A stretch of DNA of 20,000 bases. Source: an uncultured virus (IMG/VR IMGVR_UViG_3300018019_000008) (lineage: Duplodnaviria; Heunggongvirae; Uroviricota; Caudoviricetes). Position 1 is the stretch's first letter. Each line of letters begins with the position of its first letter. The DNA is taken from the IMG/VR virus record IMGVR_UViG_3300018019_000008. One strand, given 5' to 3'. The translations under genes were made by a program, and so were the position numbers. Positions 2 through 20,000 of the stretch are shown in pieces. Under the pieces are notes generated by a model. The model was not told the DNA's origin. It saw only the letters and a list, made by a program, of their open reading frames with translations, and searched no databases.

Positions 2-3000
2 TGTGTAAACCGCGCTATAAACTGGTGGGTTATTTATGTCTGTGTTTGCTATAGTGAAAAGAACTTCTGGGAGTGCATTTCCATATTGGACACCGTTAAA
101 TTCTACTTGTATTGTAGCTTTGTAATGAGTGTTAGATAAAATACCGCACATAAATTTAGCTTTACCGTTAGTAATCATAGTCGATACTGGAACATATAAC
201 GCCTCATTGTATCCCCCTTCACCATAAGGAGCACCAGTATAGTAATCTGACGCTTGAGCAGAAAAACAAGCATATACATAGAATTCTCCTTTTGCTACAC
301 AAACTATTCTAAAGAAGAACCCTGTTCCGTATCCAAGATAAGCACTTTCGCCGTTAGCTGTATTTACTCCTGAAGATGGATTAGACATCATTCCAACATC
401 AATATAATCTCCTATATTCCATATAGTACCACTACTGCCTGACTTGCTATATGGCGGATTAGCTGGTTCATAAACTTCAAAGGTTGTAGTAAACTTTGGC
501 TCTTGTGTTAATGGAATATCAGTTGCTTGTCCCTGTAAATTGTTTCCACCAGCATCGAAACATTTGTTACTATATCTTGCTTCTTGCCATACTATTCCTA
601 TGTTAGTTTTATCTCCACCCCAGATAGCGCAATTAGAAGTATCGGCTTTCCATCCAGCGTCATTACTTGGTGAATAACCACTTGGACCGTTTGTTTGTGG
701 GAACCATTGTGGGTCACTTGAACCTTGACCTGTAGTTACTTCCTCGTTTTTCGCCGTTTTACTAAAGAGAGTTGATAATTTGTCTGGATTAACTTTATTC
801 GATTGTGCTCCTTCAGCCGCCCAATCAGTTGCGATAACACCCATTATTCCCAATGTCTTCAATTGCTTATAAACATCTTTCCAAACATTGCTGATGTCGA
901 GATAAGGTGCCTGACAAGTTAATGTTATGTTTTCACCATTTTCATCAACTTTTGCTTCGGTATTCCAAATTCTATATGCGCTTGTTAGGTTGTTTGGAAT
1001 TGCATTAGGTACTAACCCAGACAGAACATCATTAAGTACAACGTCATCTCCAACATCGTAAATATTGGGGTTTGAAGAGTTAAAACCATGTTCATATGTG
1101 TCTCTTCCTATTTTACATGTTATTGCATTCTTTCTTTTCGGGCTTGCATCAATCTTCAATCTAACTTTAGCATATCTATCAGCGATTCTGCCACCAGCAA
1201 CTTGTTTCTGGGTGAAAATATCTTCGAAGAATCCCTGAATTTCATCCATAGCTTCTGAATCATTTGACCATATTGAGCTAGAATCTTCTTGATTCTTTCC
1301 TTCGCCACTTCCTATTACTTGAACTCTTTGATAAGTATCTCGTGAAGTTCGCTGGTATTTAACTGATTGCATATTTGTTCCTGTTACAAACGAGACAGAA
1401 GTGGACTTGTCGCTTCCTACTCTTGGACCCATATGGAAGTCTCCGATACAATTAAGAGGGTCATGAACTGATGGAGATTCTATCCACCATTCAAATGGCA
1501 AATAATCGTCATTTACCATCGTACCTATATCGAAAAGAATGTCCATTAATCTGTTTTTTGGAATGTTGGTTGGACCAATCATGAAAAGGTCACCTTGCGT
1601 ATATCCCGAAGGATTTCCCGTTTGCTCGCTGTATGATATGAGATTTAAGTCAATATCAGCATCAGCTAAATAGATATATGGACCCCCGCTATAAACAGGT
1701 CCAATGTATGCGTAACAAATCCCGTTACCAACTCCATCTCCGCCGTCAGGAGTATATAAAAGAATTACATCATTTTGTTTAGGAGCATAAACCCCGTTAG
1801 TTGCATCGACACGCCATTCATAAACGTAAAAAGGACTTTCATATGTACCTATGTCAACATAATTGTTCTGTCCATCATCAATAAGTATTCCTATAAAATT
1901 TTGTGGAGCAAAAGAATTAGCATAAACTTGCAATCCTAAATCTGTATTAACAGTTGGACTATATGTTTGACTATAATCAATGTTAAAGTTTCCTTCTATG
2001 AAACTAGCGTATGCAGAAGAAACATACATATGGTCGATTGGATTAGTAAATGTAGTTTCTGTAGGATAAGGAGAAGTAGGAATCCCACTACCATTAAACG
2101 GAATTATATTTCCAGTAGATATTGGAGTAATCGAATTATCTCCCTCAATAATTAACAATCCATATGTTCCTTGAATAAAGGAGACAGTAATAGTTTGAGA
2201 ATAAGTGCCTGAAAGATTACTATATACCCCAACAATACCATTACTGCTAATACCCCAGAAATATACAATCCAAGTTCCAGTATAAGAATTAAGGTCTATT
2301 TCAAACCATTCCTGAGTTAAACTTCCGTTTGCAAAGATAACTTTAACTAAATCGGTTGTATTTGTATCTTGCAAAGTTGAAGTATCTAGAATTAAACTAA
2401 AATTATTATAGAATTTTACGTTACCTTGCGAAGTTGTTAGTATTGTTTCTCCCGCATTTACCTGAGCATAAGTAGCGGTATATTCCTCTGCCGTACCTGT
2501 TTCTGTGAATTCTATTTTATATTCCTTTGTTTTTTGTACTGCTGAAGGGTCTGTTACGTTATTTGGTAGTAATGCTTCATCCCATCTTACCCAATACTTT
2601 ACGGGGTCCGTTCTATAGATGTAGGTTTGAGTAATTTCCCATCCATGATTATAATTATCGCTTTTAGATTCGCTGATTGATGTTCCCAATCCCGCCGCTG
2701 GGTCAGCATAGATTTTTACATTTGTCATATTTCGTGGGTGCCAGCTATGTAAAATATCTGGATAAATATTTTGAAGGTGACACATAGCTTGGTTAGCAGT
2801 AGTGTAAGAATGAACAAGCGGATTTTGTAGAGTAATTGTGTTTCCATTTACCGATTCTATAACATTGATTTCACAATTTGTTGGATTGCCATTCGGGTCG
2901 AAAGTATCCATGATTCCTATATTCATACTTGGTTGGAAGAAGGCATTTGGAGCACTCGAAAGAACTATTGTTGATGAGCCTTTAGATGCATTTGAAGCCA

Positions 3001-6000
3001 AAGTTATAGGTTGATATGTATTAACTAAAGTTATTTCTGGTCCAAGTCCAGCAGATATAACTCCTAAAGTGTATGTTTCTGATTGAGTATTTATATCCAT
3101 TGCATCGAGAAAAGTAGCGTAAGTAGAACCACTTCCATATACTTGTAAATTCGGGTCATACTCAGCTTCAAAATCAACTGTATCTATAGTTCCAGCATTA
3201 TTGAGGGAAGTAAATTGAGCGAGTAAAACTGGTGTGCCGCTGGTAATATTGTACAGTTGTACATATCCAGAACCAGCAGAAAGAGAAGCTATTAACCTAA
3301 TTTGAATCCATGTACCATTAATAATAGGGAAATCAGTCCAACTTGTACCCCATTCTCCATTTAGAACAAGATTACCATTTTCCATAAGGAAAAATCTCAT
3401 GTATTGTTGATTGGAATTTGCATATAAACTGGTTTCAACTCCAACAACGGCGGCGCAAGATGTCATATTTGGATTTGGACGAGCGACAGATGAACTATTA
3501 TAAAGTTTCAATAGATTAATCCAACCATAAGATAAAGTTCCATTGAAGTTAAGTAAAACTTGCCCGATTTGGAATTGAGCATATGCTGGATTACCTGATG
3601 TTTCAATGCTTCCAACAATAGAAAACTTTACTTGTGCGCTCATCCAATCATCGTAAGATGTCAAATATGAAGATATGTCAGTTGGTGCAAACAAGTTTGC
3701 CCAAGATGTGCTTGAAAATTGATTTCCAGAATCAGCAACTTGTACCCAACTACCTGAGTGCGCTACCCATAAGAATGCTTGAACCCGTATATTTTGTATA
3801 GCACCGTTTCCGCCTATGTTATTTTGGATTCTTGCTGATACGTTAAAGTGACAAGGACTTGTAGGTACACATGCAGTACCATTCGTACTGAAAGCATTAG
3901 CTAAGTTATCAAATGTGCAATAGTCAGCAGAAGCCCATGTAGGAACTACAGTACCTAAAACATAAATATGGTTATCATCTTCATCACTACTTGTTCTAAC
4001 ATATGGTGCCGTACCAGCCGTAAGCCAATGGTTACTACCAGCCTGATTCCAAGTAGCCGCCATTACATTGCCATTTTTGCTCTGATTATGCGGTGGCGGA
4101 GCACGAACCCAAGCATCTACTTGAACAAAAGATGTGGGATTAATATCTTCCTCAAAATACCATTTTTGACCGTTAGCAGTACATTGTATTTGTTGGCATC
4201 CAGTTCCTTGTATTTGTTGTGTAGTGTTTGTTGAGTCTTGAGCGTTTCCACCAAAAGTGCTCCAAGTATTGGCTGTACTTGATTGAGCAGTAAAATCATC
4301 AATCCATACTCCATAACCATCAAAAGATGCTGTGTCGATGAAGATATTTACAACTTGTTTCGTATTGTTTGTCCAAGCATTTGCTTTAGCATCCTCAAAA
4401 ATCCAACCAGTTTGAGTAGAAACTATAACAATGGGAGATAATGTATTGTCGCTATAGACTAAATAATACTGGAATCGTTTACCTTGAACTTGACCTCTAT
4501 GCCAGAACCCTAAACTTGTACAATTATTATACACTACAGACGGATTAAAGTTTGCTGATTGTGTAGCTGTACATTCTTCAGGAACATTAAAACTAGATTC
4601 TGTGCATGGCATATATAAGTCCCATATTCCGCTATGTGCATTAGTGCCATCATTATAAATTTCGGCATTAGAAAGAAGCCATCCCGTACTATCGCCAGTT
4701 TCAAAGCCGCCGTTAATAAATTGTTGTCCGCCACTTGTAAAAGCGTCCATATTATTGGAATAAATTTCTGCTAATCCCTCAAAAGCATAAGATATTGCCA
4801 TATAACGATATGTAAATGTATCCCCAGCATTAGTAATTGGACAACTCCAAATTAATTCACTTTGTTTCATAGTTCCAGCATTATAGATATAATATGTAAG
4901 GGTTGTACCACTTCTTATAACCTGAACCCAATATGTAGTACCTATAGAAAGATTACTTATTCCATTAACAAACGTTCCAGCGAAATATGTTTCTGTACCA
5001 TAACTACTGCCTTTATATCTAACTTCTGGGTATAATACCCCGCCTATGTTAATAATATCGAAAGTAGTGAAAGCACCAGCTTCTTGCTCTATTGTGTAAA
5101 AGTTTGCTATTTGATTAGCCAAACACCACGGTATAAATGCTGGCGCATTATGTGGAGATGTTGATGTAGAACAAGGTTGAGAAGTTCCTATATTAAAGGC
5201 AAAACTTTCATTAATAGTTCCGTTTATAGGACCAGTTTCAGTTGCGTTTATTCCTTGTCTGTAGAAATATGCAATTTTACTTGAATTATCGCTTTGATAA
5301 GAATAAAACGTAAGTTGGTCTTGTCCAGCATCTAAAGCAAGATAAGGTGGGTTTGGTGTTGATGCCTCATAGAGAGTATAGCCATTAAAAAGTTCTAGTC
5401 CACCCGAAGTTGTAATATGATAAGCGGCTGGAAATGAATTAATATGCTCTCTGCTTTCAAGATAAACCCCCATACATGGGATTTCATTAAATTGTATATT
5501 AACCCAATCTGGATTATGACCAGAAGTTTTAGTAGGATTTGGGTAAATAGTTCCGCCACTTGCATATCCAACTTGGAGATAACAGTAACGAATGTAAGTA
5601 GAAAGAAGACCTAATTCTACGAATTTTATTCTCGCGTTATTTACATCGCCAACATTCGTAAGAACATGTGAAAGGTCAATAGTATATATTCTCCAAGCTA
5701 ATTTATTTATGTCATAAATACTTCCAAACGTGAGACTTGCAAGCGCATTACTTCTTCCAATCATCTCTCCCATATCAGACCAATCTCCATTAGAAGCAGT
5801 ATATACAAGAACTTCGCAATCAGATTGAATGAATGGATTTAGAGTAAAGTCCCCCGCTGACCATATTACAAGAGTACAACTATTAACCGCTGTAGCATTA
5901 TCTGGGGAAGCATATGGGGGCATAGGCTTACCATTTGGATTTTCCCAAAGAGGATTAACTGAGAAAGTAATGGAAGCATTAACGTTAATATTAGATTGAA

Positions 6001-6769
6001 TATAACTTGTTGGTCTTGTTCCAAGAAGGATACTGTCATTTGCATAAGGAGCGGTGCCTATTTCATCCCATCCGCTATTTTGCATAACTGCTCCAACTAC
6101 TCCTTCATAACCGTGATATTCATCTGTAGGTTGACTTATTTCAAAAGGAGTCCCAGAATTTGACCAAATCATATCTCTTTTTCTTAAAACAGTAGTGTTT
6201 ATATCGCCATATCCTTCTTGATTATCTGGACCTCGACCACCTTCTAAAGCTATGAAATTGGAAATGTCAATTCCCCATCCTTCTTTATTATAAGGATACA
6301 TTGATTCAGCAGTAGTAGAAGTATCGCTTGGAACTTGTGGTAAATCTGAACGCGGAGTCCAGAGTAAAAACTTCATCAACTCAACTGGATTAATATTTCC
6401 GAAAAATCCTTTGGTTTCTGGAAGTGGATTATTAAAGTTTTCTACATACTTTCGCCAGAGCAAAAGTGTAAGGTCTCGTCCACCAAGATTAAGGAATCGT
6501 CCATCTTCATCCCAATCAATTTCTATATCTTCAACGAACCCTACCCATTCTTGATTTCCATCACGCACAAATTGAATTAGGTCATTGAAAGTAACGTTAG
6601 GGTCATACTCAATTGTAGCTGTAAATTCTGGGGGAGAATCCATTCTAACTTTCTTTTTAACATCAAATGTTGTCCACTTACGCGGGAGTCCCCAATTAGG
6701 ACTTGGAGTCCCAACAATATTAGCTTGATGAGCTATATAAACTGTCCATGTTTTTCCAGATTCAGGCAT
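2..6769 (-). CDS. Giant tail-tip / baseplate-hub (Tal-like) protein with inserted adhesin or carbohydrate-binding domains, >=2256 aa, 3' end outside the window
   Basis: ATG at 6769 gives MPESGKTWTVYIAHQ...FTATIEYDPNVTFNDLIQFVRDGNQEWVGFVEDIEIDWDEDGRFLNLGGRDLTLLLWRK, a hub-like N-terminus. The same frame is coding at the window edge (...LPEVLFTIANTDINNPPVYSAVYT). Absence from the ORF track fits a frame with no stop in the window. A hub-like second half (YQRVQVIGSGEG...YDVGDDVVLND) lies at about 880-1560, and a CBM-like motif (FINGGFETGDSTGW) at about 4700. It lies downstream of the tape-measure-like gene. Confidence 0.8.
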   Translation of the reverse strand, partial: MPESGKTWTVYIAHQANIVGTPSPNWGLPRKWTTFDVKKKVRMDSPPEFTATIEYDPNVTFNDLIQFVRDGNQEWVGFVEDIEIDWDEDGRFLNLGGRDLTLLLWRKYVENFNNPLPETKGFFGNINPVELMKFLLWTPRSDLPQVPSDTSTTAESMYPYNKEGWGIDISNFIALEGGRGPDNQEGYGDINTTVLRKRDMIWSNSGTPFEISQPTDEYHGYEGVVGAVMQNSGWDEIGTAPYANDSILLGTRPTSYIQSNINVNASITFSVNPLWENPNGKPMPPYASPDNATAVNSCTLVIWSAGDFTLNPFIQSDCEVLVYTASNGDWSDMGEMIGRSNALASLTFGSIYDINKLAWRIYTIDLSHVLTNVGDVNNARIKFVELGLLSTYIRYCYLQVGYASGGTIYPNPTKTSGHNPDWVNIQFNEIPCMGVYLESREHINSFPAAYHITTSGGLELFNGYTLYEASTPNPPYLALDAGQDQLTFYSYQSDNSSKIAYFYRQGINATETGPINGTINESFAFNIGTSQPCSTSTSPHNAPAFIPWCLANQIANFYTIEQEAGAFTTFDIINIGGVLYPEVRYKGSSYGTETYFAGTFVNGISNLSIGTTYWVQVIRSGTTLTYYIYNAGTMKQSELIWSCPITNAGDTFTYRYMAISYAFEGLAEIYSNNMDAFTSGGQQFINGGFETGDSTGWLLSNAEIYNDGTNAHSGIWDLYMPCTESSFNVPEECTATQSANFNPSVVYNNCTSLGFWHRGQVQGKRFQYYLVYSDNTLSPIVIVSTQTGWIFEDAKANAWTNNTKQVVNIFIDTASFDGYGVWIDDFTAQSSTANTWSTFGGNAQDSTNTTQQIQGTGCQQIQCTANGQKWYFEEDINPTSFVQVDAWVRAPPPHNQSKNGNVMAATWNQAGSNHWLTAGTAPYVRTSSDEDDNHIYVLGTVVPTWASADYCTFDNLANAFSTNGTACVPTSPCHFNVSARIQNNIGGNGAIQNIRVQAFLWVAHSGSWVQVADSGNQFSSTSWANLFAPTDISSYLTSYDDWMSAQVKFSIVGSIETSGNPAYAQFQIGQVLLNFNGTLSYGWINLLKLYNSSSVARPNPNMTSCAAVVGVETSLYANSNQQYMRFFLMENGNLVLNGEWGTSWTDFPIINGTWIQIRLIASLSAGSGYVQLYNITSGTPVLLAQFTSLNNAGTIDTVDFEAEYDPNLQVYGSGSTYATFLDAMDINTQSETYTLGVISAGLGPEITLVNTYQPITLASNASKGSSTIVLSSAPNAFFQPSMNIGIMDTFDPNGNPTNCEINVIESVNGNTITLQNPLVHSYTTANQAMCHLQNIYPDILHSWHPRNMTNVKIYADPAAGLGTSISESKSDNYNHGWEITQTYIYRTDPVKYWVRWDEALLPNNVTDPSAVQKTKEYKIEFTETGTAEEYTATYAQVNAGETILTTSQGNVKFYNNFSLILDTSTLQDTNTTDLVKVIFANGSLTQEWFEIDLNSYTGTWIVYFWGISSNGIVGVYSNLSGTYSQTITVSFIQGTYGLLIIEGDNSITPISTGNIIPFNGSGIPTSPYPTETTFTNPIDHMYVSSAYASFIEGNFNIDYSQTYSPTVNTDLGLQVYANSFAPQNFIGILIDDGQNNYVDIGTYESPFYVYEWRVDATNGVYAPKQNDVILLYTPDGGDGVGNGICYAYIGPVYSGGPYIYLADADIDLNLISYSEQTGNPSGYTQGDLFMIGPTNIPKNRLMDILFDIGTMVNDDYLPFEWWIESPSVHDPLNCIGDFHMGPRVGSDKSTSVSFVTGTNMQSVKYQRTSRDTYQRVQVIGSGEGKNQEDSSSIWSNDSEAMDEIQGFFEDIFTQKQVAGGRIADRYAKVRLKIDASPKRKNAITCKIGRDTYEHGFNSSNPNIYDVGDDVVLNDVLSGLVPNAIPNNLTSAYRIWNTEAKVDENGENITLTCQAPYLDISNVWKDVYKQLKTLGIMGVIATDWAAEGAQSNKVNPDKLSTLFSKTAKNEEVTTGQGSSDPQWFPQTNGPSGYSPSNDAGWKADTSNCAIWGGDKTNIGIVWQEARYSNKCFDAGGNNLQGQATDIPLTQEPKFTTTFEVYEPANPPYSKSGSSGTIWNIGDYIDVGMMSNPSSGVNTANGESAYLGYGTGFFFRIVCVAKGEFYVYACFSAQASDYYTGAPYGEGGYNEALYVPVSTMITNGKAKFMCGILSNTHYKATIQVEFNGVQYGNALPEVLFTIANTDINNPPVYSAVYT

Positions 6770-8635: not shown

Positions 8636-9087
8636 CCGACCATGATTCCTAGTTTCCGATATGCATCAAATATGTATATCGTAAACATTTCTTGGAATAC
8701 TAAGTCAGTATTTTCTCGCCAATATGCCGCATCATGCTTCGGTTTTGCAATTAGCTTTTCCATCATATCGAATGAATGATTCTTATACTTTTCCTGAAGA
8801 GCTTCTGGTATTTGAGTTGGGTCTTTATATGGTAGCAATTCAGTTGGAGTCATATCTTCCCACTCTTTAGCGGAAGGTCTTCGAATCCAACATAATGGCT
8901 CACCAGTATTAGGGTCTAACATTGGGTCAAGAATGTCATGGAAACGTTTTATGTTTGCATCAAGCTCTTCAGCATTTTGTGTCATTTTCTGCTTTGCAAG
9001 TTCCATCTTTTTGATGTCTTCAGCTAATTGTTCGGGTGTCCTTTTATATCTTTCGATTATTGCTAATTTTCTTTGTTCGGATGCCAT
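8626..9087 (-). CDS. Tail assembly chaperone (lambda gpG-like)
   Basis: 153 aa, upstream of the tape-measure-like gene, ending in the slippery site A AAT TTT immediately before TAG. Confidence 0.6.
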   Translation of the reverse strand: MASEQRKLAIIERYKRTPEQLAEDIKKMELAKQKMTQNAEELDANIKRFHDILDPMLDPNTGEPLCWIRRPSAKEWEDMTPTELLPYKDPTQIPEALQEKYKNHSFDMMEKLIAKPKHDAAYWRENTDLVFQEMFTIYIFDAYRKLGIMVGNF

Positions 9088-9171: not shown

Positions 9172-9546
9172 TTAAGGACGAACTTTTTTTCTTTTTAAAA
9201 ATCGATGATGCAATAACCCGTGGCATTTCGCACATAAAGTTATGGTTTTCAAAGGTGAATAACTAATCTCATGACATAATAAATTTTTGGTTGAACCACA
9301 AACTTCACAATTAGGCTTCAATTTCTTAAAGCCATTTGCATCTTGTTGTTCATTAGCCAATATCTGTAATTTTTCTGATATATCTTTTGGAGTTTGAGAA
9401 ATTATTTCAAGTTTTAATTTTGCATATTGTTCTTTTGAGAAGAAGTGTTTTCGGCATTTTTCTGAGCAAAATTGTTGTATTCCAGCCCTATAATTAGGAT
9501 TTTGAATAAATTCCTTTTTACATTCTGGATTTTGACATATTAGCAC
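9172..9546 (-). CDS. Zn-finger / HNH-like protein
   Basis: N-terminal CQNPEC...FCSEKC; C-terminal CEVC...LLCHEISY...LCAKCHGLLH. A TATA box lies upstream at about 9580-9595. Confidence 0.65.
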   Translation of the reverse strand: MLICQNPECKKEFIQNPNYRAGIQQFCSEKCRKHFFSKEQYAKLKLEIISQTPKDISEKLQILANEQQDANGFKKLKPNCEVCGSTKNLLCHEISYSPLKTITLCAKCHGLLHHRFLKRKKVRP

Positions 9547-9616
9547 GTTTTATCACTATTTATATTTATGTTAGTCGTAATATATAAACTTTTCTATTAT
9601 ATCTAACACTTTCTGT

Positions 9617-9633
9617 CCATAAGATTTAAATAG
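9617..9633 (+). promoter_or_regulatory. Archaeal BRE+TATA promoter
   Basis: CCATAAGATTTAAATAG, a copy of the recurring 17-bp motif. Confidence 0.8.
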
Positions 9634-9649
9634 GAGAAGCGTATTCTAA

Positions 9650-9665
9650 TTAATCAGGTGATTAA
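9650..9665. promoter_or_regulatory. Palindromic operator-like site (copy 2)
   Basis: TTAATCAGGTGATTAA over the predicted start site and RBS of ORF 9668. Confidence 0.65.
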
Positions 9666-9667
9666 GT

Positions 9668-10138
9668 ATGATTACAAGAAAAATGCAAAAATTTCTTGAG
9701 GAAATAGAACAACATCCTGAACTAATGAAGAAAATAAAATATTGCGTTTACATGAATCGAATCCAGAAAAGGCTCGAACGCGAACTTGATTCAACACTTT
9801 GGTTAGCAGTCCATCACCCGAAAATCCTCTTAGATGAGGAAAAAGAATGTATGGACATAACTGGAAAAATAAGTTCTCATCGCCGATTGAAAAAACTACT
9901 TTTAATTGTAAAAGCTGTAAATCCTAAAATGGAAGTTGAACTTGTTCTTAAAAATCTAGAGTTTCCAGAAAAAGAGCCAGTAACACAGGGAACCGTAGCT
10001 GACCTTTACAAACTCAAAGGCAAATGTCCAAAATGCGGAAAAGAACCTTGTGAATGCGATAAAATGGAAGCAAAACTTCAAGAAGTTGTTCAGCAATCTC
10101 AACCAGAAGAAGGTACTAGACTACCTCGACCTAACTAA
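9668..10138 (+). CDS. Hypothetical protein with C-terminal CxxC...CxC motif
   Basis: 156-aa ORF with its own promoter (9617-9633) and a GGTGA RBS; contains CPKCGKEPCEC. Confidence 0.65.
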   Translation: MITRKMQKFLEEIEQHPELMKKIKYCVYMNRIQKRLERELDSTLWLAVHHPKILLDEEKECMDITGKISSHRRLKKLLLIVKAVNPKMEVELVLKNLEFPEKEPVTQGTVADLYKLKGKCPKCGKEPCECDKMEAKLQEVVQQSQPEEGTRLPRPN

Positions 10139-10826
10139 TTTCGTGTTTTTCTTCTACTCTATACCACGGGCAACCGTTAGTACCAGCACTACGTTTTCTC
10201 ATTGGACGATAAGGACACCACTTGCATTCTATTCGTTTAGGTTGTAACATTTCTGGTTTTTTCTGTTCTACTGCATCGAGTATTGTGCCCACTTGATAAA
10301 TGGCACCATCGAGAAATAATTGACGTTCTTCTTTATTCATGCTAATTTCCCAGACCGACATGCTGAAACTTATAACGTTGAAAACCATTAGGTAACCTAA
10401 ATCAACATCGAGAACGCCCATTGCGATTCCCAATTGTTCAATCCATTCCTGTGGAATGTCTGCTTTACTATAGATTTTTTTACGGGTTGTTTTTGACTCA
10501 ATTGGATAACGTATCTTCGAACCGCTTTCTACGCCATAAATGGCATCTATAGTGACTGCAATTCCATGAAGGTCATGCTGTTCTTCTTGAGCGTCAAAGT
10601 TTTTATGAAGAGCAATGTGAGCTAAAGTTCCAATGAGCAAAATGCCTACGTTTTGGCTATCATAAATAGCATTAATCAGTCCAGTTAACCGCCAATATCC
10701 TTTCAAAGGACAAGCTATAGCGTCAGACCGATGCATACCGCCTCGTTGTTTTTGGTCATGGCTGAAATCCCTCATAATAATCTCAGCAAATTTTTGGACC
10801 ATTTCGGATTTATGTTCTATTTTCAT
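10131..10826 (-). CDS. Cas4-like PD-(D/E)XK nuclease (solo, viral type)
   Basis: N-terminal CPLK, GTLAH, TIDAI...IESKT, QL, and C-terminal CKWCPY...C: RecB-like motifs with four potential Fe-S cysteines. AGGTGA RBS. Confidence 0.75.
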   Translation of the reverse strand: MKIEHKSEMVQKFAEIIMRDFSHDQKQRGGMHRSDAIACPLKGYWRLTGLINAIYDSQNVGILLIGTLAHIALHKNFDAQEEQHDLHGIAVTIDAIYGVESGSKIRYPIESKTTRKKIYSKADIPQEWIEQLGIAMGVLDVDLGYLMVFNVISFSMSVWEISMNKEERQLFLDGAIYQVGTILDAVEQKKPEMLQPKRIECKWCPYRPMRKRSAGTNGCPWYRVEEKHEIS

Positions 10827-10914
10827 GTATTTTCACCTTACAATCATAACAAAGATTATCTTCCCAATCGGTAACAGTTCCGCCGCAACCTAAGCATATA
10901 TGAGCTTCTACCAC
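10810..10914 (-). CDS. Small Zn-finger protein (34 aa)
   Basis: GTG start gives MVEAHICLGCGGTVTDWEDNLCYDCKVKIHENRT*. Two CxxC motifs; it fills the gap between the terminase and Cas4-like genes with short overlaps. Confidence 0.5.
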   Translation of the reverse strand: MVEAHICLGCGGTVTDWEDNLCYDCKVKIHENRT

Positions 10915-12521
10915 AGATTCGCACCGCTTTCTTTAACTTGAGAGAATGGACTACCTTCGCCATTGTCAACTTCATCATAATAGCTGATAGCATAAATCAT
11001 TGCATCCGCCGAGTGGTCATCTTGCTTGCGGATTTTACCAGTTTCATCATAGGTTAAGTTTCTAAGGCTTCGCATCAAATCCTCGTTATCTTCATGTCTT
11101 GGAATCCGTAGTTTATGACGCTCGACATATTTCTTGAGAGTAGCAACATATTTATACTTCTCATTTCCGCCTTCCGCGCCCGTAAATAATTCATGAACAC
11201 CAGCTTCAACCCGTTCGGCGAGCCAGCCATTAAGTGCCCATTCTCGCGGGTCAGGACGAATAACTTCAACTTGCCATCTGGTAGCAAGTTCAACCGCTAA
11301 GTCTAACTTTTCTTGGTCTGTTAAACCAATGGTCTCATGGGCTTCCAATACGAAAACCCAATCTCTAAATTGACCGAGAACAACATAAGCAGTAGGGCTT
11401 CCTCTGCCCCAATCTATACCTAATACTCGGTTATGAACGTATTCGTTTAATGCCGCCATTGTGTCTGTTGGCAAATCGTCCATTTTCATTCCTTCCTGAA
11501 GTAAAACTCTTTGTAGAAGTTCAAGGCATTTTCCAGCTTCGTATGGACGGCATTCATCACACGCGGCTTTGCAGAATGCAACACCTAAATCTGCTGGGTT
11601 AAAGACCAGACCAGATGATGTGTTAATACCACCGAGAGCTTCAACTAACCATTCAGAGTTAGAACACTTCTTTCTAAGAATCTCAATATTTAAGTCTGGC
11701 ATCCACGGAACATTTGACTTCCAATGTTTCGGGTTTGTGTCTTCGTAAATCTTATATGGGTCTGTTTCATCAGTAACGCCAGCGTCATTAACATGTCTGG
11801 CGATTGCCCATTGATAACGTTTATAGCCTAACTTTTCTGCATCATTCCAAGTTATCAAGAAATCTCCGTGAATAAAGTGCGCTGTTGAACTTTGAATAAT
11901 GTGTATATCTGGGCTTGTAGAAACTTCCCAAATTGCTGATTTAATAAACTTTCCGCCACCAGCTTCTTCACCAGCCGCTTGTTCATCTATAATTAAGTCA
12001 TAAGTGTGTGGACCTCGAACTGAAGTTCCTGAGCAAGCATGAAATTTAGCTTCTCCCTCAGAGAACGTAGTTGTTGTTTTTTGAATGTTCTTTAAAGTGT
12101 AACCTTCTAAGACCGTGTTATTCCGAATCCAGCCTTGAATATAAGACGCAATTTTGTCTGACTGCTCTTGAGAACCACCCATACATGAAATGCTGTACAT
12201 GTCGTGAGTAAATATTCGCCACATAATATAGATGGCTAAAACGAAAGTCTTACCTGAGCCACGCCCAGCCGAAATGATTACAAGTCTAACGCCATGAAAT
12301 GCTAAGTCTTCTAAAAATTCTTTCTGTCCATCTGAAAGAACAAGAGGACCGCCTGTATTCGGGTCTGTTCTTAAAATTTGATAAGCGAATTTTACTGGTC
12401 CCTCAACCTTCCAAAATTCACGCCATTTTCTATAATCTTCAAGCTCTATGATGTCTTTCTTCTTGAATTTCTGAAGTAACTCAGTTTCCTTATCGAACAT
12501 TCCCTTCGGGAACTTAGCCAC
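10908..12521 (-). CDS. terL: Terminase large subunit
   Basis: LSDGQ Q-motif, Walker A SAGRGSGKT, Walker B LIIDE, motif III SSTA, and RNase H-like nuclease motifs LGIDWG and DDHSADAMIYA. Confidence 0.93.
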   Translation of the reverse strand: MAKFPKGMFDKETELLQKFKKKDIIELEDYRKWREFWKVEGPVKFAYQILRTDPNTGGPLVLSDGQKEFLEDLAFHGVRLVIISAGRGSGKTFVLAIYIMWRIFTHDMYSISCMGGSQEQSDKIASYIQGWIRNNTVLEGYTLKNIQKTTTTFSEGEAKFHACSGTSVRGPHTYDLIIDEQAAGEEAGGGKFIKSAIWEVSTSPDIHIIQSSTAHFIHGDFLITWNDAEKLGYKRYQWAIARHVNDAGVTDETDPYKIYEDTNPKHWKSNVPWMPDLNIEILRKKCSNSEWLVEALGGINTSSGLVFNPADLGVAFCKAACDECRPYEAGKCLELLQRVLLQEGMKMDDLPTDTMAALNEYVHNRVLGIDWGRGSPTAYVVLGQFRDWVFVLEAHETIGLTDQEKLDLAVELATRWQVEVIRPDPREWALNGWLAERVEAGVHELFTGAEGGNEKYKYVATLKKYVERHKLRIPRHEDNEDLMRSLRNLTYDETGKIRKQDDHSADAMIYAISYYDEVDNGEGSPFSQVKESGANLW

Positions 12522-12879
12522 ACTCCTTATTTATGTATCGTTTTATCCAGTTACAATTTGAACAAAGTAATTGATAATCCTTTGAACCAACTTTAATTTT
12601 TCTTATAACCATTCCATAAAAACTATATCTGTTTTTATGTTCTCTTAATTCTCTTACTCCACCGCCATTTACGTGGTCAATTTGAAGACATCGTGTATCG
12701 TTTAAAAAATCGCCGTGATTCAAGTTATATGGATTAGAACATTTGCCACCAAGTAATTGAATTATTATTTGTCGTCTTTTTCGAATCATTTTTTTGTTAC
12801 GTTCAGAATTTCCTCTAAGACGTTCTTCACGATGCCTCAAATAGTAATCGTGATTGATAGTAGTTTTTTCTTTCGACAT
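12514..12879 (-). CDS. HNH-like endonuclease adjacent to the terminase
   Basis: LQIDHVNGGG...YQLLCSNCNWIKR; overlaps the terL start; paralog of 6781..7164. Confidence 0.8.
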   Translation of the reverse strand: MSKEKTTINHDYYLRHREERLRGNSERNKKMIRKRRQIIIQLLGGKCSNPYNLNHGDFLNDTRCLQIDHVNGGGVRELREHKNRYSFYGMVIRKIKVGSKDYQLLCSNCNWIKRYINKECG

Positions 12880-14692: not shown

Positions 14693-14965
14693 TGTCACGG
14701 AAACCTATCAGCACCCTACTTTCAAGCAAAGGACATAGGCTTATTTTGCTCGCCACGAGTCATTTCTGTAGCCTATTTCTCTGTGGCACCATTCGATGCT
14801 TCATCTGGGATTCAGACCATGACTATGAATATCACGGCTGGCGTTTCAGAGGGCAAAGCTGGCTAGGTACTGCCCTTAAAACTCGTCAGTTAGGCTTTCC
14901 CTAGTAGCGTATGCCCTCTCACTACCAACCAATGACTACGATGTTTCTCAGCCAGATATTTCCTA

Positions 14966-15027
14966 CGGCGGGGGCTGGATTCGAACCCGCTTTCCACCTG
15001 AGTCCTTGCCACATGAACGACCCTACC
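14966..15027 (-). ncRNA. tRNA-like element lacking the anticodon arm
   Basis: Acceptor GGTAGGG/CCCCGCC, D-arm GTTC-ATGTGGCAA-GGAC, T-arm GCGGG-TTCGAAT-CCAGC. Only 11 nt lie between the D and T arms; no CCA. Confidence 0.6.
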
Positions 15028-15054
15028 CTCGGAATCTGGCTTTGACTATGATTG

Positions 15055-15109
15055 ATGGGTTGAGGGGGGTCCCGCTCCATTGGTAATGGGTTGAGGCACC
15101 CCCGCTCCA
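15055..15109. repeat. Imperfect tandem direct repeat ATGGGTTGAGG-N4/5-CCCGCTCCA (2 copies)
   Basis: Copies at 15055-15079 and 15086-15109. Confidence 0.85.
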
Positions 15110-15456
15110 CCGTTCCTATGGAGTTGCTAACTGTGTATTCCACGCGGTTCATGCCTTAGATGTTCGGCTTGTCTGTGGTACACGGTGCGCCTTATAGGTT
15201 TTCCAGACCATCACGGCAACTCCCACCTGTTTTCTTTAATAGTTTACCAGCATCCTTAACCGAATACGAGAGTTAGTTCACGGTTATTCCCTAACCCACA
15301 TCGCTTCGGGGAACGCTGGCGAGTATGATAGACGCAAACAAGGTAGGCTCGCTACTCCACGAGGGAGTGTACATCATTGCTTTCAACTCTGAATACACTA
15401 TAAGGCGTATCCTTCGAGTTGACCCGCTTGCTAAGTATAGTATAATATAAGTTCTC

Positions 15457-16849: not shown

Positions 16850-16866
16850 GTATTTAAATGTTATGG
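16850..16866 (-). promoter_or_regulatory. BRE+TATA promoter
   Basis: CCATAACATTTAAATAC. Confidence 0.75.
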
Positions 16867-16904
16867 AACGGGAAGACCCCTGACCTTTAATGTTGAGGGT
16901 CATC

Positions 16905-17111
16905 TCAACGGGTTGTGGTCTTCACCGCTCCATTACAGTAGTAACAGTTATCTGTTGGTTCGAGATGTTCATTTCCTCTATGGTGTTGGTGATGCCGCCC
17001 TTTGTTAGGTTTTCGGCTCATTGGTCCATAGTTATATCGGAAGAATATTCTTCCGCATCGTTGACATTTTACTTTGATGTTTGCTCCCATATGACGCACC
17101 GTCCTACCCAT
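16905..17111 (-). CDS. Small Zn-ribbon protein
   Basis: CQRC...CYYC with a His-rich linker; co-oriented with its neighbours. Confidence 0.55.
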   Translation of the reverse strand: MGRTVRHMGANIKVKCQRCGRIFFRYNYGPMSRKPNKGRHHQHHRGNEHLEPTDNCYYCNGAVKTTTR

Positions 17112-17176
17112 GAACTGTCAACCCGCGCCAAACGAGCGACATGGTTCAACTACCGATTAATGGGTATTATGGGCTG

Positions 17177-17389
17177 TCATTTGGTTGACTCCTTGATACG
17201 CTTTATTTCTGAGGGAGATTGGTCGTTATTTTGAGTAATTAATTCTTTTTCGTCAGGTCCAACACCTAATCCAGCAGATATACTGCATTGTTGATTCATT
17301 GCTCGCCAAAGGTCTTCGCTAGAACGGTCAGGGGGGTTAATAGGAACTTCTTTTCTAGTCGGGTCTCGTTTATTTTCAAAGAAAGACAT
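17177..17389 (-). CDS. Hypothetical protein
   Basis: 70 aa; AGGTGA RBS overlapping the upstream stop. Confidence 0.55.
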   Translation of the reverse strand: MSFFENKRDPTRKEVPINPPDRSSEDLWRAMNQQCSISAGLGVGPDEKELITQNNDQSPSEIKRIKESTK

Positions 17390-17697: not shown

Positions 17698-17726
17698 AGT
17701 ATCCCCATTATACAATGGTCAAACAC

Positions 17727-17743
17727 CTATTTAAACTTTATGG
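17727..17743 (-). promoter_or_regulatory. BRE+TATA promoter
   Basis: CCATAAAGTTTAAATAG. Confidence 0.75.
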
Positions 17744-17759
17744 TTAATCAACTGATTAA
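17744..17759. promoter_or_regulatory. Palindromic operator-like site (copy 3)
   Basis: TTAATCAACTGATTAA abutting the BRE at 17743, between divergent promoters. Confidence 0.65.
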
Positions 17760-17815
17760 ATAAGTGTCAGTTCATGTTTGTGAACTTTGTGATTTTGACA
17801 AGCATGGAGATTATA

Positions 17816-17832
17816 CCATAACATTTATATAG
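17816..17832 (+). promoter_or_regulatory. BRE+TATA promoter of the RNA/tRNA cluster
   Basis: CCATAACATTTATATAG. Confidence 0.75.
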
Positions 17833-17859
17833 GAGACTGCTATTATAACTAACACACTT

Positions 17860-18035
17860 GAAGTGGTCTAACATGATGGCAACATCAATAGTCTATAATA
17901 TTCGTTTTAAGCGGTGTATCGGAGAAGACGCACCAGCGGACCACATAGGTAAATTTAGAACGACCCAACAGTAATCCAAAAAAGCCTAAACCGTTGCCAT
18001 CGAAATAAGGTTTGATTTGCTGGTTGGTCTTTTGT
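17860..18035 (+). ncRNA. Candidate pseudoknotted structured RNA leading the tRNA cluster
   Basis: Follows the promoter at 17816-17832. Pairings: GTGGTC(17863)/GACCAC(17939) and GATGGCAAC(17875)/GTTGCCATC(17993), plus a long stem at about 17962-18029. Confidence 0.5.
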
Positions 18036-18096
18036 CGCATTGGGGTTTTGGGGTAACAACGAACAAAGCGTATTTCCCTGAAACAGACATCTTTGA

Positions 18097-18218
18097 AGTG
18101 TGGTATCTCTAACGGAAGGAAGCAAGTCCTTGAACAACCAAGTTCGGGAGCTTACGCCTCTGAACAATTCGTTGGGGGATAGCTTGCGGCGTGGGTTCGA
18201 CTCCCACCCACACAACCA
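18097..18218 (+). tRNA. tRNA-Gln(UUG) with a 47-nt BHB intron at 37/38 (intron 18134..18180)
   Basis: CAAGT-CCTT-GA|A-CAAC...GTTG-GGGG-AT|A-GCTTG forms a strict BHB. T-arm GTGGG-TTCGACT-CCCAC; encoded CCA. Atypical A1.A72 and C33. Confidence 0.85.
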
Positions 18219-18270
18219 CTAACTCTTCTAATAGACTTGTAGCTTAATGGATAGAGCCTTATGCTTCTAA

Positions 18271-18287
18271 CCGATAAGTTTAAATAC
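18271..18287 (+). promoter_or_regulatory. BRE+TATA promoter at the 5' end of the tRNA-Arg intron
   Basis: CCGATAAGTTTAAATAC, starting at intron nt 2. Confidence 0.7.
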
Positions 18288-18320
18288 TTGTTGTACCATT
18301 ATATACTATGGTGATAAAGC

Positions 18321-18782
18321 ATACCAATACTCGACAAAGACAAGAAACAAGAATATGATAGAAATTGGGCATATAATAAACGTCATGGATTACCAACAAG
18401 AACAACAATAAAGTTACCAGAAAATGTTCGAATTGAACGTCAAAAGTTAACAAAGAAAAAATATAAAGAAAACCGCATTAACTTACGAAAACAACAATTA
18501 ACAAAAAAATTCGGAGAACGATGCCCAATTTGCAATGACAATTATTGTCTTCAAATTCATAAAAAAGATGGAAGCCCTCATATATCATGGCAATCAATGA
18601 ATAATGCAGAATTTTCATTGTTACTTTCATCAGATGATTATGTTCAACTTTGTTTCAATTGTCATAAAGCAGTACATTGGTGTATGTATTATCTTGGTAT
18701 GTCATGGGAACAAATAAAAAAACTTGTAATTCTTCCAGTTATTGCAACTGCAATAGAAATGAAGAATAAGTACCATGCGTAG
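18321..18782 (+). CDS. Intron-encoded HNH-like endonuclease (153 aa, probable ATA start)
   Basis: The frame is open from ATA 18321 (preceded by GGTGA and an in-frame TAA): (M)PILDKDKKQEYDRNW...FGERCPICNDNYCLQIHKKDG...YVQLCFNCHKAVH. The track shows only the C-terminal 61 aa. Confidence 0.7.
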   Translation: MPILDKDKKQEYDRNWAYNKRHGLPTRTTIKLPENVRIERQKLTKKKYKENRINLRKQQLTKKFGERCPICNDNYCLQIHKKDGSPHISWQSMNNAEFSLLLSSDDYVQLCFNCHKAVHWCMYYLGMSWEQIKKLVILPVIATAIEMKNKYHA

Positions 18783-18891
18783 TCAGGAAGTAACATAAGA
18801 GATGAGGGTCCGAGTCCTTCCGCCTGTGCCATAGTTAACCTCAATCGTGTTAATCATTTATATATGATTGACCTTGATTAACGTCAACTGT

Positions 18892-18917
18892 GCCGATGTA
18901 GCTTATGTGGTAGAGTA
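18892..18917 (+). tRNA. 5' part (nt 1-26) of an interrupted tRNA-Thr-like gene
   Basis: GCCGATG-TA-GCTT-ATGTGGTA-GAGT-A; TATA box (TTTATATA) about 27 nt upstream. Confidence 0.65.
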
Positions 18918-18918
18918 A

Positions 18919-18935
18919 CCGAAAGACTTAAATAG
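18919..18935 (+). promoter_or_regulatory. BRE+TATA promoter at the 5' end of the tRNA-Thr insertion
   Basis: CCGAAAGACTTAAATAG. Confidence 0.7.
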
Positions 18936-18967
18936 TAGTTTACAATATTATATTACGGTGATAAACT

Positions 18968-19393
18968 ATGGATGAATTTAATAAAGACCAATTACGATAT
19001 AAAGACCCAGAGAAACGAAAACAATATCAAAAAGATTACGCTAAAAACAATAAAAAGAACTACTATAAATTACATCCTGAATATAAAAAAATAGCGGCAG
19101 ATAAGAAAAAAGCGTTGTTAAGAAAAAAGAAACGCAAAATTGTAGAATTGCTCGGTGGTAGATGCTCAAATCCTAACTGTGCTTGTCCAGATGGATATTC
19201 AAGATGTATAGCGGCATTAGAACTTCATCATCCAGACGAAACAACTAAAAATGAAAACTTCAATAACTATCTTGCTATGTCTATGGAAAGAATAATAAAA
19301 GAAGTATTGCCTATAGTAGTATTGTTTTGCTCAAATTGCCATCAAGAACATCATAATCCAGAACTATGCCGCTTTAGCATAACAGAAATGTAA
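18968..19393 (+). CDS. HNH-like endonuclease inserted in the tRNA-Thr-like gene
   Basis: LLGGRCSNPNC...ALELHHPD...LFCSNCHQEHH; own promoter at 18919-18935 and GGTGA RBS. Confidence 0.8.
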   Translation: MDEFNKDQLRYKDPEKRKQYQKDYAKNNKKNYYKLHPEYKKIAADKKKALLRKKKRKIVELLGGRCSNPNCACPDGYSRCIAALELHHPDETTKNENFNNYLAMSMERIIKEVLPIVVLFCSNCHQEHHNPELCRFSITEM

Positions 19394-19438
19394 GGGTTCT
19401 GTAAACCTTTGATGGGTGTGCAACTCACCCAAGCGGCT
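19393..19438 (+). tRNA. 3' part A of the tRNA-Thr(UGU)-like gene
   Basis: AGGGT-TC-TGT-AA-ACCTT, TGAT, GGGTG-TGCAACT-CACCC, AAGCGGC-T. Begins within the HNH stop codon; no CCA. Confidence 0.65.
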
Positions 19439-19500
19439 CTTTAAACCGCAAACTTTATTAACAACCAACGAGATAGTAATAAAACAAGAAGTGAAAAACT

Positions 19501-19581
19501 ATGAACTGTTCAGATTGTAAAGAACTATATAAAGAACGAAAACAAGAACCACCGTGTAAGAGTTGTCCTATAAATGGATAA
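19501..19581 (+). CDS. Micro Zn-finger peptide (26 aa)
   Basis: MNCSDCKELYKERKQEPPCKSCPING*; follows the promoter-like element at 19446-19462 and overlaps the next start. Confidence 0.5.
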   Translation: MNCSDCKELYKERKQEPPCKSCPING

Positions 19582-19948
19582 TGAGTGGGGAGTTGGAATG
19601 CCTGAAAGTTTATACCTTGACGAATTTGCTCGTCAACTGTACTATGTCTTTCAAGCAACACCATATATGGTTGGTTCATCAGTTCATAAGAAAAAATGGC
19701 GAGATGTTGACATAAGAATACTCCTAACAAAAAAGGAATGGGATAAATTTGGATTTGGTAAAGTTGGAGAAGAACATCAAAACGGAAAGTGGTGTGCATA
19801 TTGTATGGCATTTAGCGAATTAGGTAGAAAAATAACGGGATTACCAATAGATTTTCAGATACAAGAGTTGGATGATGCTAACAAGAAATATCAAGGACAA
19901 AGAAATGCTTTAATTTTTAAACTATCATCTGATTGCATTAATAAATAA
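19574..19948 (+). CDS. Minimal nucleotidyltransferase (pol beta superfamily)
   Basis: YMVGSS...RDVDIRILL (hG[GS]...DhD) with a third carboxylate in LPIDFQIQ. Confidence 0.75.
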   Translation: MDNEWGVGMPESLYLDEFARQLYYVFQATPYMVGSSVHKKKWRDVDIRILLTKKEWDKFGFGKVGEEHQNGKWCAYCMAFSELGRKITGLPIDFQIQELDDANKKYQGQRNALIFKLSSDCINK

Positions 19949-19999
19949 CGGGTTTTGTAAACCTGTGAAGAGAGGTTCAAACACTCTCCTTCGGCTCCA
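19948..19999 (+). tRNA. 3' part B of the tRNA-Thr(UGU)-like gene
   Basis: (A)CGGGT-TT-TGT-AA-ACCTG(T), GAGAG-GTTCAAACA-CTCTC, CTTCGGC-T-CCA. Begins at the nucleotidyltransferase stop codon and has no 5' half of its own. Confidence 0.65.
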
Positions 20000-20000
20000 A

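Follow-up and report, generated by a model that had tools for sequence, protein, structure and literature searches.

The 20,000-nucleotide (nt) window analyzed here comes from an uncultured tailed virus (IMG/VR record IMGVR_UViG_3300018019_000008; Caudoviricetes) and ends in a tRNA-Thr locus in which tRNA pieces alternate with small open reading frames (ORFs). An earlier note, made from the sequence of the window alone, described one tRNA-Thr 5' part followed by two alternative 3' parts, each starting at the stop codon of an inserted gene. All the pieces that it listed, namely the 5' piece, the ORF of an HNH protein, ORFs of 26 and 124 amino acids (aa), a CCA-ending 3' piece and a GTAA repeat, are present in the sequence and the ORF list (Table 1). 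We compared the locus with others, numbered from L003 onward; a metagenome scan with the HNH protein returned six loci, and 15 loci were fetched in all. L003 is the same virus as the window, with one substitution and one AA indel over the 4.96 kb that they share, and extends 6 kb further. L006 is a relative with 68-82% nucleotide identity in 12 of 17 blastn matches.

Table 1. Positions of the tRNA pieces, cassettes and genes discussed in the text (window numbering).
Feature	Position	Strand	Evidence and remarks
Large terminase (TerL)	10908-12521	minus	PHROG phrog_2, E 1.8e-22
tRNA-Arg(UCU) exon 1, positions 1-37	18233-18269	+	Sequence
tRNA-Arg(UCU) insert, 523 nt at 37/38	18270-18792	+	hBHBh' motif (see text); promoter and HNH-1 gene
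HNH-1	18321-18782	+	ATA where ATG is expected; PHROG HNH, E 1.2e-5
tRNA-Arg(UCU) exon 2, positions 38-76 with CCA	18793-18831	+	Sequence
tRNA-Thr(UGU) B, 5' fragment	18892-18918	+	Acceptor 5' strand and D arm with GG, to position 26/27; sequence, ARAGORN on the join
Promoter and leader of HNH cassette 2	18919-18967	+	TATA-like TTAAATAG 18928-18935, GGTGA 18957-18961, ATG 18968
HNH-2 gene, 141 aa	18968-19393	+	ORF; PHROG
Complete tRNA-Thr(UGU) A	19368-19438	+	ARAGORN (19368-19439), Rfam RF00005
Trailer of A and leader of second cassette	19439-19500	+	Sequence
Second-cassette cargo	19501-19948	+	26-aa CxxC...CxxC ORF 19501-19581; 124-aa ORF 19574-19948
tRNA-Thr B, 3' fragment, positions 27-76	19949-19999	+	Anticodon arm (UGU), T arm TTCAAAC, acceptor 3' strand, CCA 19997-19999

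The middle tRNA piece is part of a complete gene. What the earlier note took for the first alternative 3' part is the last two thirds of a tRNA-Thr(UGU), here called A, which is the one and only tRNA that ARAGORN reports in the window. Rfam RF00005 covers it from model position 1 to 71 of 71 with 49.8 bits (gathering score 29, E 3.5e-8), and its acceptor strands GCCGCTT/AAGCGGC form 7/7 pairs. A has no encoded CCA, a D loop without GG and the T loop TGCAACT. Its first 26 nt (19368-19393) are at the same time the final 26 nt of the HNH-2 ORF, the TAA stop codon of which falls at tRNA positions 24-26.

The two outer pieces belong together and form a second tRNA-Thr(UGU), here called B. The 5' fragment begins GCCGATG-TA-GCTT at 18892 and stops at tRNA position 26/27, while the 3' fragment starts at position 27; TAAC is found on both sides of the breakpoint, and there is no gap and no further overlap. 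When the 5' fragment was joined by script to 19949-20000, ARAGORN recognized a tRNA-Thr at its default threshold and up to ps106, equal to A, while the join of the 5' fragment with A was recognized only up to ps92. The acceptor strand of the 5' fragment pairs at 6/7 positions with B and 5/7 with A, counts which the earlier note had already given correctly, together with the missing CCA of A. Thus, A is a complete, conserved tRNA gene and the two B pieces fit each other exactly, and since A is complete and the 5' fragment fits B, the locus consists of one complete gene nested within one split gene. B is split at 26/27 by ~1030 nt, which hold the HNH cassette, tRNA-Thr A and the second cassette. 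GTAA occurs at both ends of the first cassette, and TTTAAACC (19440-19447), just behind A, resembles a remnant of the B-type anticodon loop (TTTGTAAACC minus GT) and also resembles a TATA box.

The continuation of the sequence in L003 places this pair of genes in its context. Five nt after the CCA of B begins a dense tRNA array with genes for Glu, Glu, Tyr, Ala, Gly, Lys, Lys, Pro and others, so that B is the first member of an ordinary array and A lies inside that array. CCA is encoded by 8 of the 10 ARAGORN tRNAs of L003, and the exceptions, Thr A and Lys(UUU), each stand directly before a cassette. L003 also has two tRNA-shaped genes that were missed by ARAGORN and by Rfam at E<=1: a tRNA-Cys(GCA)-like gene at 5497-5572 with a 3-bp D stem and the T loop TGAAAGT, and a tRNA-Pro(UGG)-like gene at 6645-6718 with the T loop TGCGACT.

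HNH-2 matches two PHROG families that are both annotated "HNH endonuclease" (phrog_3106, E 1.3e-12; phrog_2255, E 1.8e-12), and the motif CxxC...CxxCH..H is conserved in its alignment; the Pfam HNH model stays below its threshold. By family membership, HNH-2 is thus a predicted free-standing homing-endonuclease gene. Its homologs are 86-91% identical in L005 and 53-57% in L006, and a search of IMG/VR and species genomes with the HNH-2 alignment gave only weak partial matches (L009-L013; 27-44% identity over 34-108 residues), with tRNAs nearby only at L012. PHROG "HNH endonuclease" families are matched by 6 of the 20 ORFs scanned in the window.

The second cassette encodes a small zinc-ribbon ORF of 26 aa and a 124-aa ORF with a GS...DxD motif, the stop codon of which abuts B position 27. 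The earlier note labeled the latter a nucleotidyltransferase, which could not be established: there is no Pfam family at E<=5, nothing relevant in a PDB sequence search, and no Foldseek match at E<=1e-3 for its AlphaFold2 model (mean predicted local distance difference test score, 70.8), small nucleotidyltransferases (1ylq, 2rff, 7ae2) appearing just among the weak rows. Homologs of the 124-aa protein (53% and 42%) occur in two IMG/VR contigs with no tRNA nearby. Recombinase or integrase families were found neither in nor beside the cassette ORFs (Pfam, PHROG), and a search with Rfam gave no group I or group II intron, whether at E<=1 over the entire window or at E<=10 for 17700-20000.

The cassettes carry promoters of a type that is common in this virus. 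The promoter-like motif ATAANNTTWAAATA occurs eight times in the window (1.95 expected; eight or more in 0 of 200 shuffles), at distances of 20-60 nt ahead of gene starts; GGTGA stands before several of these starts. We considered a common origin of the ends of the HNH-2 and HNH-1 cassettes, and make no such claim, since the likeness at the 5' ends is the promoter consensus of many genes and the likeness at the 3' ends is short.

At their 3' ends, all the cassette ORFs that we inspected stop near, at or within a tRNA piece. The HNH-1 stop codon lies 10 nt before tRNA-Arg exon 2 and that of HNH-2 lies within A. In L004, a third HNH gene (HNH-3) stops 1 nt ahead of a repeated acceptor strand. 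In L006, an HNH ORF near 8778 extends 28 nt into tRNA-Cys, the stop codon of an HNH ORF ending at 10378 is 2 nt ahead of tRNA-His, and that of an endonuclease VII ORF abuts tRNA-Val. Terminator-like sequences between cassette ORFs and tRNA pieces were not seen by eye, and no terminator scan was run.

L005 carries the same locus in a second virus and shows which parts of it are conserved. There, the 5' fragment is followed by the HNH gene, complete A, the B remnant and two tRNA-Glu genes. L005 has no second cassette, and A runs directly into the B anticodon loop CTTTGTAAACC. In the window, the CTTTGTAAACC string stands after A minus its GT (TTTAAACC) and again in the B loop (19954-19963). This repeat arrangement around the second cassette is what would be left by insertion, or by deletion, between direct repeats.

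The L005 ortholog of A is 68/72 identical and scores 52.5 bits (Rfam). At D-stem pair 13:22, T:A in the window corresponds to C:G in L005, a compensatory change, albeit between two sequences only, and the HNH ORF tail that overlaps A has a different length and frame in L005. The change on both sides of the D stem and the altered ORF tail suggest that the RNA, not the peptide, is conserved over A. The B pieces have fared differently in L005. The 5' fragment (25/27 identical to the window) lacks 2 nt of the D stem, and the B remnant (41/45 identical) has lost nt 27-31, the 5' strand of the anticodon stem, and starts in the anticodon loop. With these deletions, the B halves are not maintained as tRNA parts in L005. 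The L005 relics of B retain the canonical GG and TTC.

The whole block is more conserved between the two viruses than its surroundings. Besides the two B fragments, its promoter is 90% identical between the window and L005, the HNH gene 86% and A 94%, while outside the block identity is 49% in the spacer, 67% and 79% in the two tRNA-Glu genes and 74% in the HNH-1 tail. A also has an elbow of L005 type (D loop A-G, T loop TGC), which is found in 4/4 L005 tRNAs and, in L003, in A alone among 10 ARAGORN tRNAs. High identity within the block, low identity in its flanks and the L005-type elbow of A together suggest that the block was transferred in one piece between virus lineages. In L005 750-1089, the A-G for G18-G19 comes together with TGC for TTC, which may be a co-varying change of the elbow; one of the L005 tRNAs has a weak Rfam match to RAGATH-21 (23.4 bits, threshold 70.3).

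Close relatives differ in which tRNA sites carry cassettes of the HNH family. Over ~1560 nt, L004 differs from the window by an AA indel, four substitutions at 18795-18800 and a 432-bp HNH-3 cassette, and by nothing else. The cassette (L004 1088-1519, opposite window 18820-18828) consists of a promoter and the third HNH gene, is bounded by CGCCTGTG and sits at the 3' end of the tRNA-Arg piece. The four substitutions lie at most 25 nt from the insertion in otherwise identical DNA, and a cassette with adjacent substitutions suggests a homing event with a short co-conversion tract. The 5' flank of HNH-3 holds a short string that resembles a tRNA-Cys fragment beside the homologous L006 HNH gene, which suggests that the cassette moved from a tRNA-Cys site. 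At that site in L006, the HNH gene stands between a 5' fragment of tRNA-Cys and a complete tRNA-Cys, and L003 has only the complete tRNA-Cys. The same arrangement recurs in L015, an unrelated IMG/VR contig, where an HNH gene (phrog_2255, E 1e-20) lies between a 23-nt tRNA-Phe 5' fragment and a complete tRNA-Phe. Altogether, HNH-3 is present in L004 and not in the window, the tRNA-Cys HNH gene is present in L006 and not in L003, and the insert of the neighboring tRNA-Arg is absent in L006; HNH-2 is present in all four loci that cover its site (window, L003, L004 and L005). Co-conversion of flanking markers is seen in the HNH-3 substitutions, the identity of the HNH-2 block and the donor-type elbow of A.

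Other sites in the arrays vary as well. After the same CCA-less tRNA-Lys(UUU), L003 5825-6300 has a 135-aa endonuclease-like ORF (phrog_93, E 1.2e-6; weak VRR-NUC match) and L006 9950-10380 has an HNH-2 homolog followed by tRNA-His, which looks like cassette exchange at one site. Just upstream of this complete tRNA-Lys(UUU), L006 has a truncated second tRNA-Lys (Rfam, 31.8 bits), the 5' end of which is overlapped by a Fic/DOC-family gene on the minus strand (9444-9868; Pfam E 2e-16).

Considering the anatomy of the locus and its variation among relatives, we conclude that tRNA-Thr(UGU) B was probably broken at 26/27 by nested mobile homing-endonuclease cassettes and a replacement tRNA, A, and that the B halves are relics. 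HNH-2 would cut B-type tRNA-Thr DNA of a co-infecting genome that lacks the cassette; A would escape cutting by its different D-arm and anticodon-stem sequence, and repair would copy the cassette along with A. The first insertion may have been joined at the 4-nt microhomologies TAAC and GTAA. The B relics would flank the element like exons and act as homology arms, A would supply tRNA-Thr, and the B halves would not be joined at the RNA level. The cassette mRNAs would have no 3' untranslated region or terminator of their own, and it is probably the maturation of the next tRNA that determines where they end. In the case of HNH-2, we speculate that tRNA processing would remove the gene's own stop codon, so that translation and tRNA maturation may compete.

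The cassette-capture hotspot proposed in the earlier note is thus borne out in essence. Cassettes are indeed present or absent at tRNA positions among relatives, but they are HNH cassettes, no integrase was found, and what is duplicated is the whole gene A or a 5' part, not an attachment (att)-like 3' part. The alignment of relatives that the note called for likewise revealed cassette variation but no empty site for the B-type gene, and this is the first of several observations that weigh against our conclusion. An intact, uninterrupted B-type tRNA-Thr was found in 0 of the 15 loci, two B strings had no exact match in IMG/VR, and no B-type tRNA-Thr was seen in L006 or L007; with no uninterrupted relative, the empty site of the HNH-2/A cassette is deduced and not seen. 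The B pieces still make as good a cloverleaf as A (ps106 for both), and this parity could reflect either that the insertion is recent or that the pieces are under selection. A lacks the CCA that most of the L003 tRNAs (8/10) encode, and given its non-canonical D loop and T loop as well, its function is deduced from conservation only. Finally, whichever cassette came first and however the TTT(GT)AAACC repeat around the second cassette arose, the history of the locus needs at least three steps.

Selection on the pieces could mean that the B halves are kept because they are functional, either as homology arms for homing or as RNase P/RNase Z handles that fix and stabilize the 3' ends of cassette mRNAs. 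This idea overlaps with the relic interpretation and adds selection on the fragments; we regard it as unlikely, though worth keeping in mind. The fragments are more similar between the window and L005 (25/27 and 41/45) than the neighboring functional tRNA-Glu genes (67% and 79%), and the cassette ORFs inspected all stop close to tRNA pieces with no terminator-like sequence visible by eye, which is compatible with a role in mRNA 3' processing, as the earlier note had also suggested. However, high identity is also expected from a recent transfer of the whole block, and the L005 deletions break the D stem and the anticodon stem, so that tRNA-like folding is not maintained there.

It is improbable that B was never one gene, that is, that two or three tandem tRNA-Thr genes suffered unrelated indels by which the first lost its 3' part and the last its 5' part. 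The earlier note had named a history of this kind, two genes with unrelated indels, as the one that would overturn its proposal. The arrays do hold paralogs and truncated copies (the 5'-truncated tRNA-Lys beside the Fic gene of L006; two Glu and two Lys in L003), and paralogs would share acceptor sequence, which makes the 6/7 pairing weak evidence for a single gene. Unrelated indels would nevertheless have had to end the 5' fragment and begin the B 3' fragment at the same tRNA position, with a shared TAAC, and to leave two pieces that, when joined, score as high as intact A. The same breakpoint and order occur in L005, and in relatives three further cassettes interrupt single tRNA genes of which uninterrupted orthologs exist.

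The possibility that B is spliced or assembled as RNA was addressed with a script for bulge-helix-bulge (BHB) motifs, defined by a 4-bp central helix, two 3-nt bulges cut after the second base, and outer and inner helices. In agreement with the earlier note, there is no BHB at the tRNA-Thr junctions in nine registers of the 5'/B pair and nine of the 5'/A pair (five and five of them re-scored); the central helix reaches at most 3/4 and the flanking helices are poor. Complementary flanks of the Nanoarchaeum type are also lacking in the tRNA-Thr halves, the inner helix having 0-2/5 pairs in the five tRNA-restoring registers, with no BHB in any of them.

The tRNA-Arg(UCU) upstream of B behaves differently under the same script. 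Its insert is bounded by a central helix with 4/4 Watson-Crick pairs (CTTC/GAAG, 18264-67 with 18787-90), bulges at 18268-70 and 18791-93 that both read TA/A across the cut, an outer helix, the anticodon stem, of 5/5 and an inner helix of 4/5. For its 5' site, just one of 19,970 window positions qualifies (seven if the anticodon stem is ignored), and the anticodon stem, the 3' bulge and the central helix all appear in the unconstrained minimum free energy fold of the 599 nt. Judged by this predicted pairing, the insert has the canonical archaeal BHB in its full helix-bulge-helix-bulge-helix form (hBHBh'). An intact, intron-less tRNA-Arg(UCU) ortholog is found at L006 8438-8513.

The Arg gene itself may no longer work. 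Its acceptor has 4/7 pairs, and the scripted exon join is recognized by ARAGORN only up to ps90. The exon 2 acceptor strand CGCCTGT matches the L006 allele and not the window's own exon 1, and window 18801-18860 is 98.3% identical to L006, compared with 68-82% in 12 of the 16 other blastn matches. A partner strand for the exon 1 acceptor AGACTTG was not found within any tRNA context of the window, L003 and L004. The 4/7 acceptor and an L006-like exon 2 from about 18801 make tRNA-Arg look like a co-conversion chimera that may be dead.

Few other candidate introns were found. A wider script for BHB-bounded introns that leave a default-threshold ARAGORN tRNA when removed, run on both strands of the window and L003-L006, gave only artefacts that re-use existing complete tRNAs, and an L014 tRNA with an insert of ~50 nt after an HNH gene was dropped because no splice register could be fixed. 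In L006, the minus strand of 12482-12643 encodes a class II tRNA-Ser(UGA) (Rfam, 43.5 bits) with a 73-nt insert at 37/38 that contains a repeated GGGTGAAACT and has just a relaxed BHB (outer helix 5/5, central 2/4, inner 4/5).

That B is a genuine split or intron-containing tRNA, with ~1030 nt removed by an archaeal splicing endonuclease of relaxed specificity or with its halves joined in trans, as the earlier note entertained, can be set aside as very improbable. In its favor, an archaeal host is probable, the 523-nt HNH insert of tRNA-Arg is bounded by a canonical BHB, the L006 tRNA-Ser(UGA) with its 2/4 central helix hints that the host enzyme may tolerate imperfect motifs, and both tRNA-Thr junctions read TA/A like the bulges of the Arg intron. 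Against it, no register has a 4/4 central helix or combines a central helix with flanking helices, the insert holds two promoters, three ORFs and a complete tRNA with the same anticodon, which makes B redundant, and L005 has lost the 5' strand of the B anticodon stem and part of the D stem.

Taken together with the tRNA-Arg insert, the broken tRNA-Thr gene raises a broader possibility, which we offer tentatively and at somewhat less than even odds. A single family of promoter-bearing HNH cassettes may have specialized on the tRNA arrays of archaeal tailed viruses, with two tricks for survival. In tRNA-Arg, the cassette would be a spliced intron that the host removes; in tRNA-Thr, tRNA-Cys and tRNA-Phe, it would break the gene and bring a cleavage-resistant copy, with the old halves serving as homing arms, a substitute for an intron that works without splicing.

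Several known systems resemble parts of this locus. The closest of those studied by experiment is the free-standing homing endonuclease SegB of phage T4, which resides in the phage tRNA cluster and spreads with adjacent tRNA genes (PMC2330249). As described there, SegB is similar to the present case in that a homing-endonuclease gene lies within a viral tRNA array and relatives lack the gene, and also in that its recognition site is in tRNA gene sequence and it spreads at the expense of a rival phage's markers. SegB differs in being a GIY-YIG enzyme encoded between genes, whereas the enzyme here is an HNH protein, predicted only, encoded inside a tRNA gene with both halves left behind and followed by a complete replacement tRNA, in a virus whose host is probably archaeal.

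A cellular counterpart, and the closest in architecture, is the tRNA-Thr(GGU) locus of Caldiarchaeum subterraneum, where a 5' fragment lies 1.8 kb upstream of a complete tRNA-Thr with a putative transposable element in between (PMC3293823). The succession of tRNA-Thr 5' fragment, mobile element and complete tRNA-Thr is shared, and heterogeneity in the natural population is reported for that locus. According to the same account, the element there encodes a DNA recombinase, sits in a cell chromosome and precedes an intron-bearing complete gene. Here, in contrast, the cassettes are HNH cassettes of 0.4-0.5 kb in a virus, no recombinase was found, and the locus retains a 3' remnant as well.

SSV-type viruses and pNOB8-type plasmids use an integrase to insert into tRNA genes and duplicate an att core in doing so (PMC4090602). 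There, too, tRNA genes are the targets and the borders carry partial tRNA duplications. The cassettes described here differ in having no integrase in or beside them, in their repeats of only 4-10 nt (TAAC, GTAA, CGCCTGTG and TTTGTAAACC), and in duplicating a 5' part or a whole gene. The word "homing" does not occur in the available text of that review. A survey of archaeal tailed viruses (PMC8651126) mentions tRNA introns just in passing.

Archaeal introns provide a further comparison. BHB introns in archaeal rRNA genes encode LAGLIDADG homing endonucleases, such as I-DmoI and I-PorI. The tRNA-Arg insert is similar in being a predicted protein-spliced BHB intron with a homing-endonuclease gene and an intron-less allele in L006, and differs in that it interrupts a tRNA and not an rRNA, encodes an HNH and not a LAGLIDADG protein, has its own promoter and is found in a virus. 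The tRNA-Thr junctions, having no BHB, fall outside this comparison. In the split tRNAs of Nanoarchaeum equitans and Caldivirga, complementary leaders form a BHB and the halves are the sole source of that tRNA. The tRNA-Thr locus shares with them that 5' and 3' parts are encoded apart and that one part could in principle serve several partners, but the tRNA-Thr halves have no complementary flanks, an intact isoacceptor lies between them, and they are eroded in L005. Our searches of the open-access literature turned up neither an archaeal-type tRNA intron with an HNH gene nor an HNH cassette flanked by retained tRNA halves; nor did we find there a published counterpart of what the tRNA-Arg insert would be, a viral BHB tRNA intron that bears an HNH gene.

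The host of this tailed virus is quite likely an archaeon. Short inserts at 37/38 that proteins splice out are characteristic of archaea or eukaryotes, and this conclusion is drawn from the BHB insert of tRNA-Arg at 37/38, the terminase, the Shine-Dalgarno-like GGTGA and the TATA-like promoters. The protein-atlas neighbors of the terminase are viruses, Nitrososphaerota and Bathyarchaeota, which we treat as a lead only. No TerL relatives were found in IMG/VR, in species genomes or, by tblastn, in cultured phages; window DNA and terminase had 0 matches among 50,697 cultured phage records and none in IMG/VR, and blastn of 17800-20000 against phages was also empty. The window further encodes a neck or tail-completion protein and a dUTPase-like protein.

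Elsewhere in the window, a ~360-nt non-coding stretch precedes tRNA-Arg (17855-18218; L006 8045-8423), lies behind a TATA-like promoter at 17818-17831 and is far better conserved between the window and L006 than the coding DNA is. At its end is a tRNA-like RNA of 122 nt (18097-18218), which has a T arm, ACCA, an acceptor stem and, in place of the anticodon arm, a long branched arm. The acceptor covaries (GTGTGG/CCACAC versus GTCCCT/AGGGAC), compensatory changes being found in 4 of 37 predicted pairs, and Rfam matches remain below threshold (transfer-messenger RNA, 21.7 bits; YrlA, 23.8 bits). At the other end, a single minus-strand ORF of >2256 aa (2-6769) runs off the start of the window. In two G+C-richer blocks (14905-15425 and 16860-17240), no ORF is convincing and Rfam gives nothing at E<=5, and parts of them are conserved in L006 (15329-15392 at 95%, 16903-17108 at 82%).

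These results remove the tempting reading of the tRNA-Thr locus as a tri-partite or alternatively assembled tRNA. In its place, they offer a testable picture in which selfish nuclease genes remodel viral tRNA arrays by splitting genes, importing foreign tRNA alleles and scrambling acceptor stems through co-conversion. BHB-type tRNA inserts could also serve as a cheap host signal, here pointing to an archaeon. If the proposed replacement-tRNA mechanism is true, it would provide a homing endonuclease with a splicing-free route into a needed gene.

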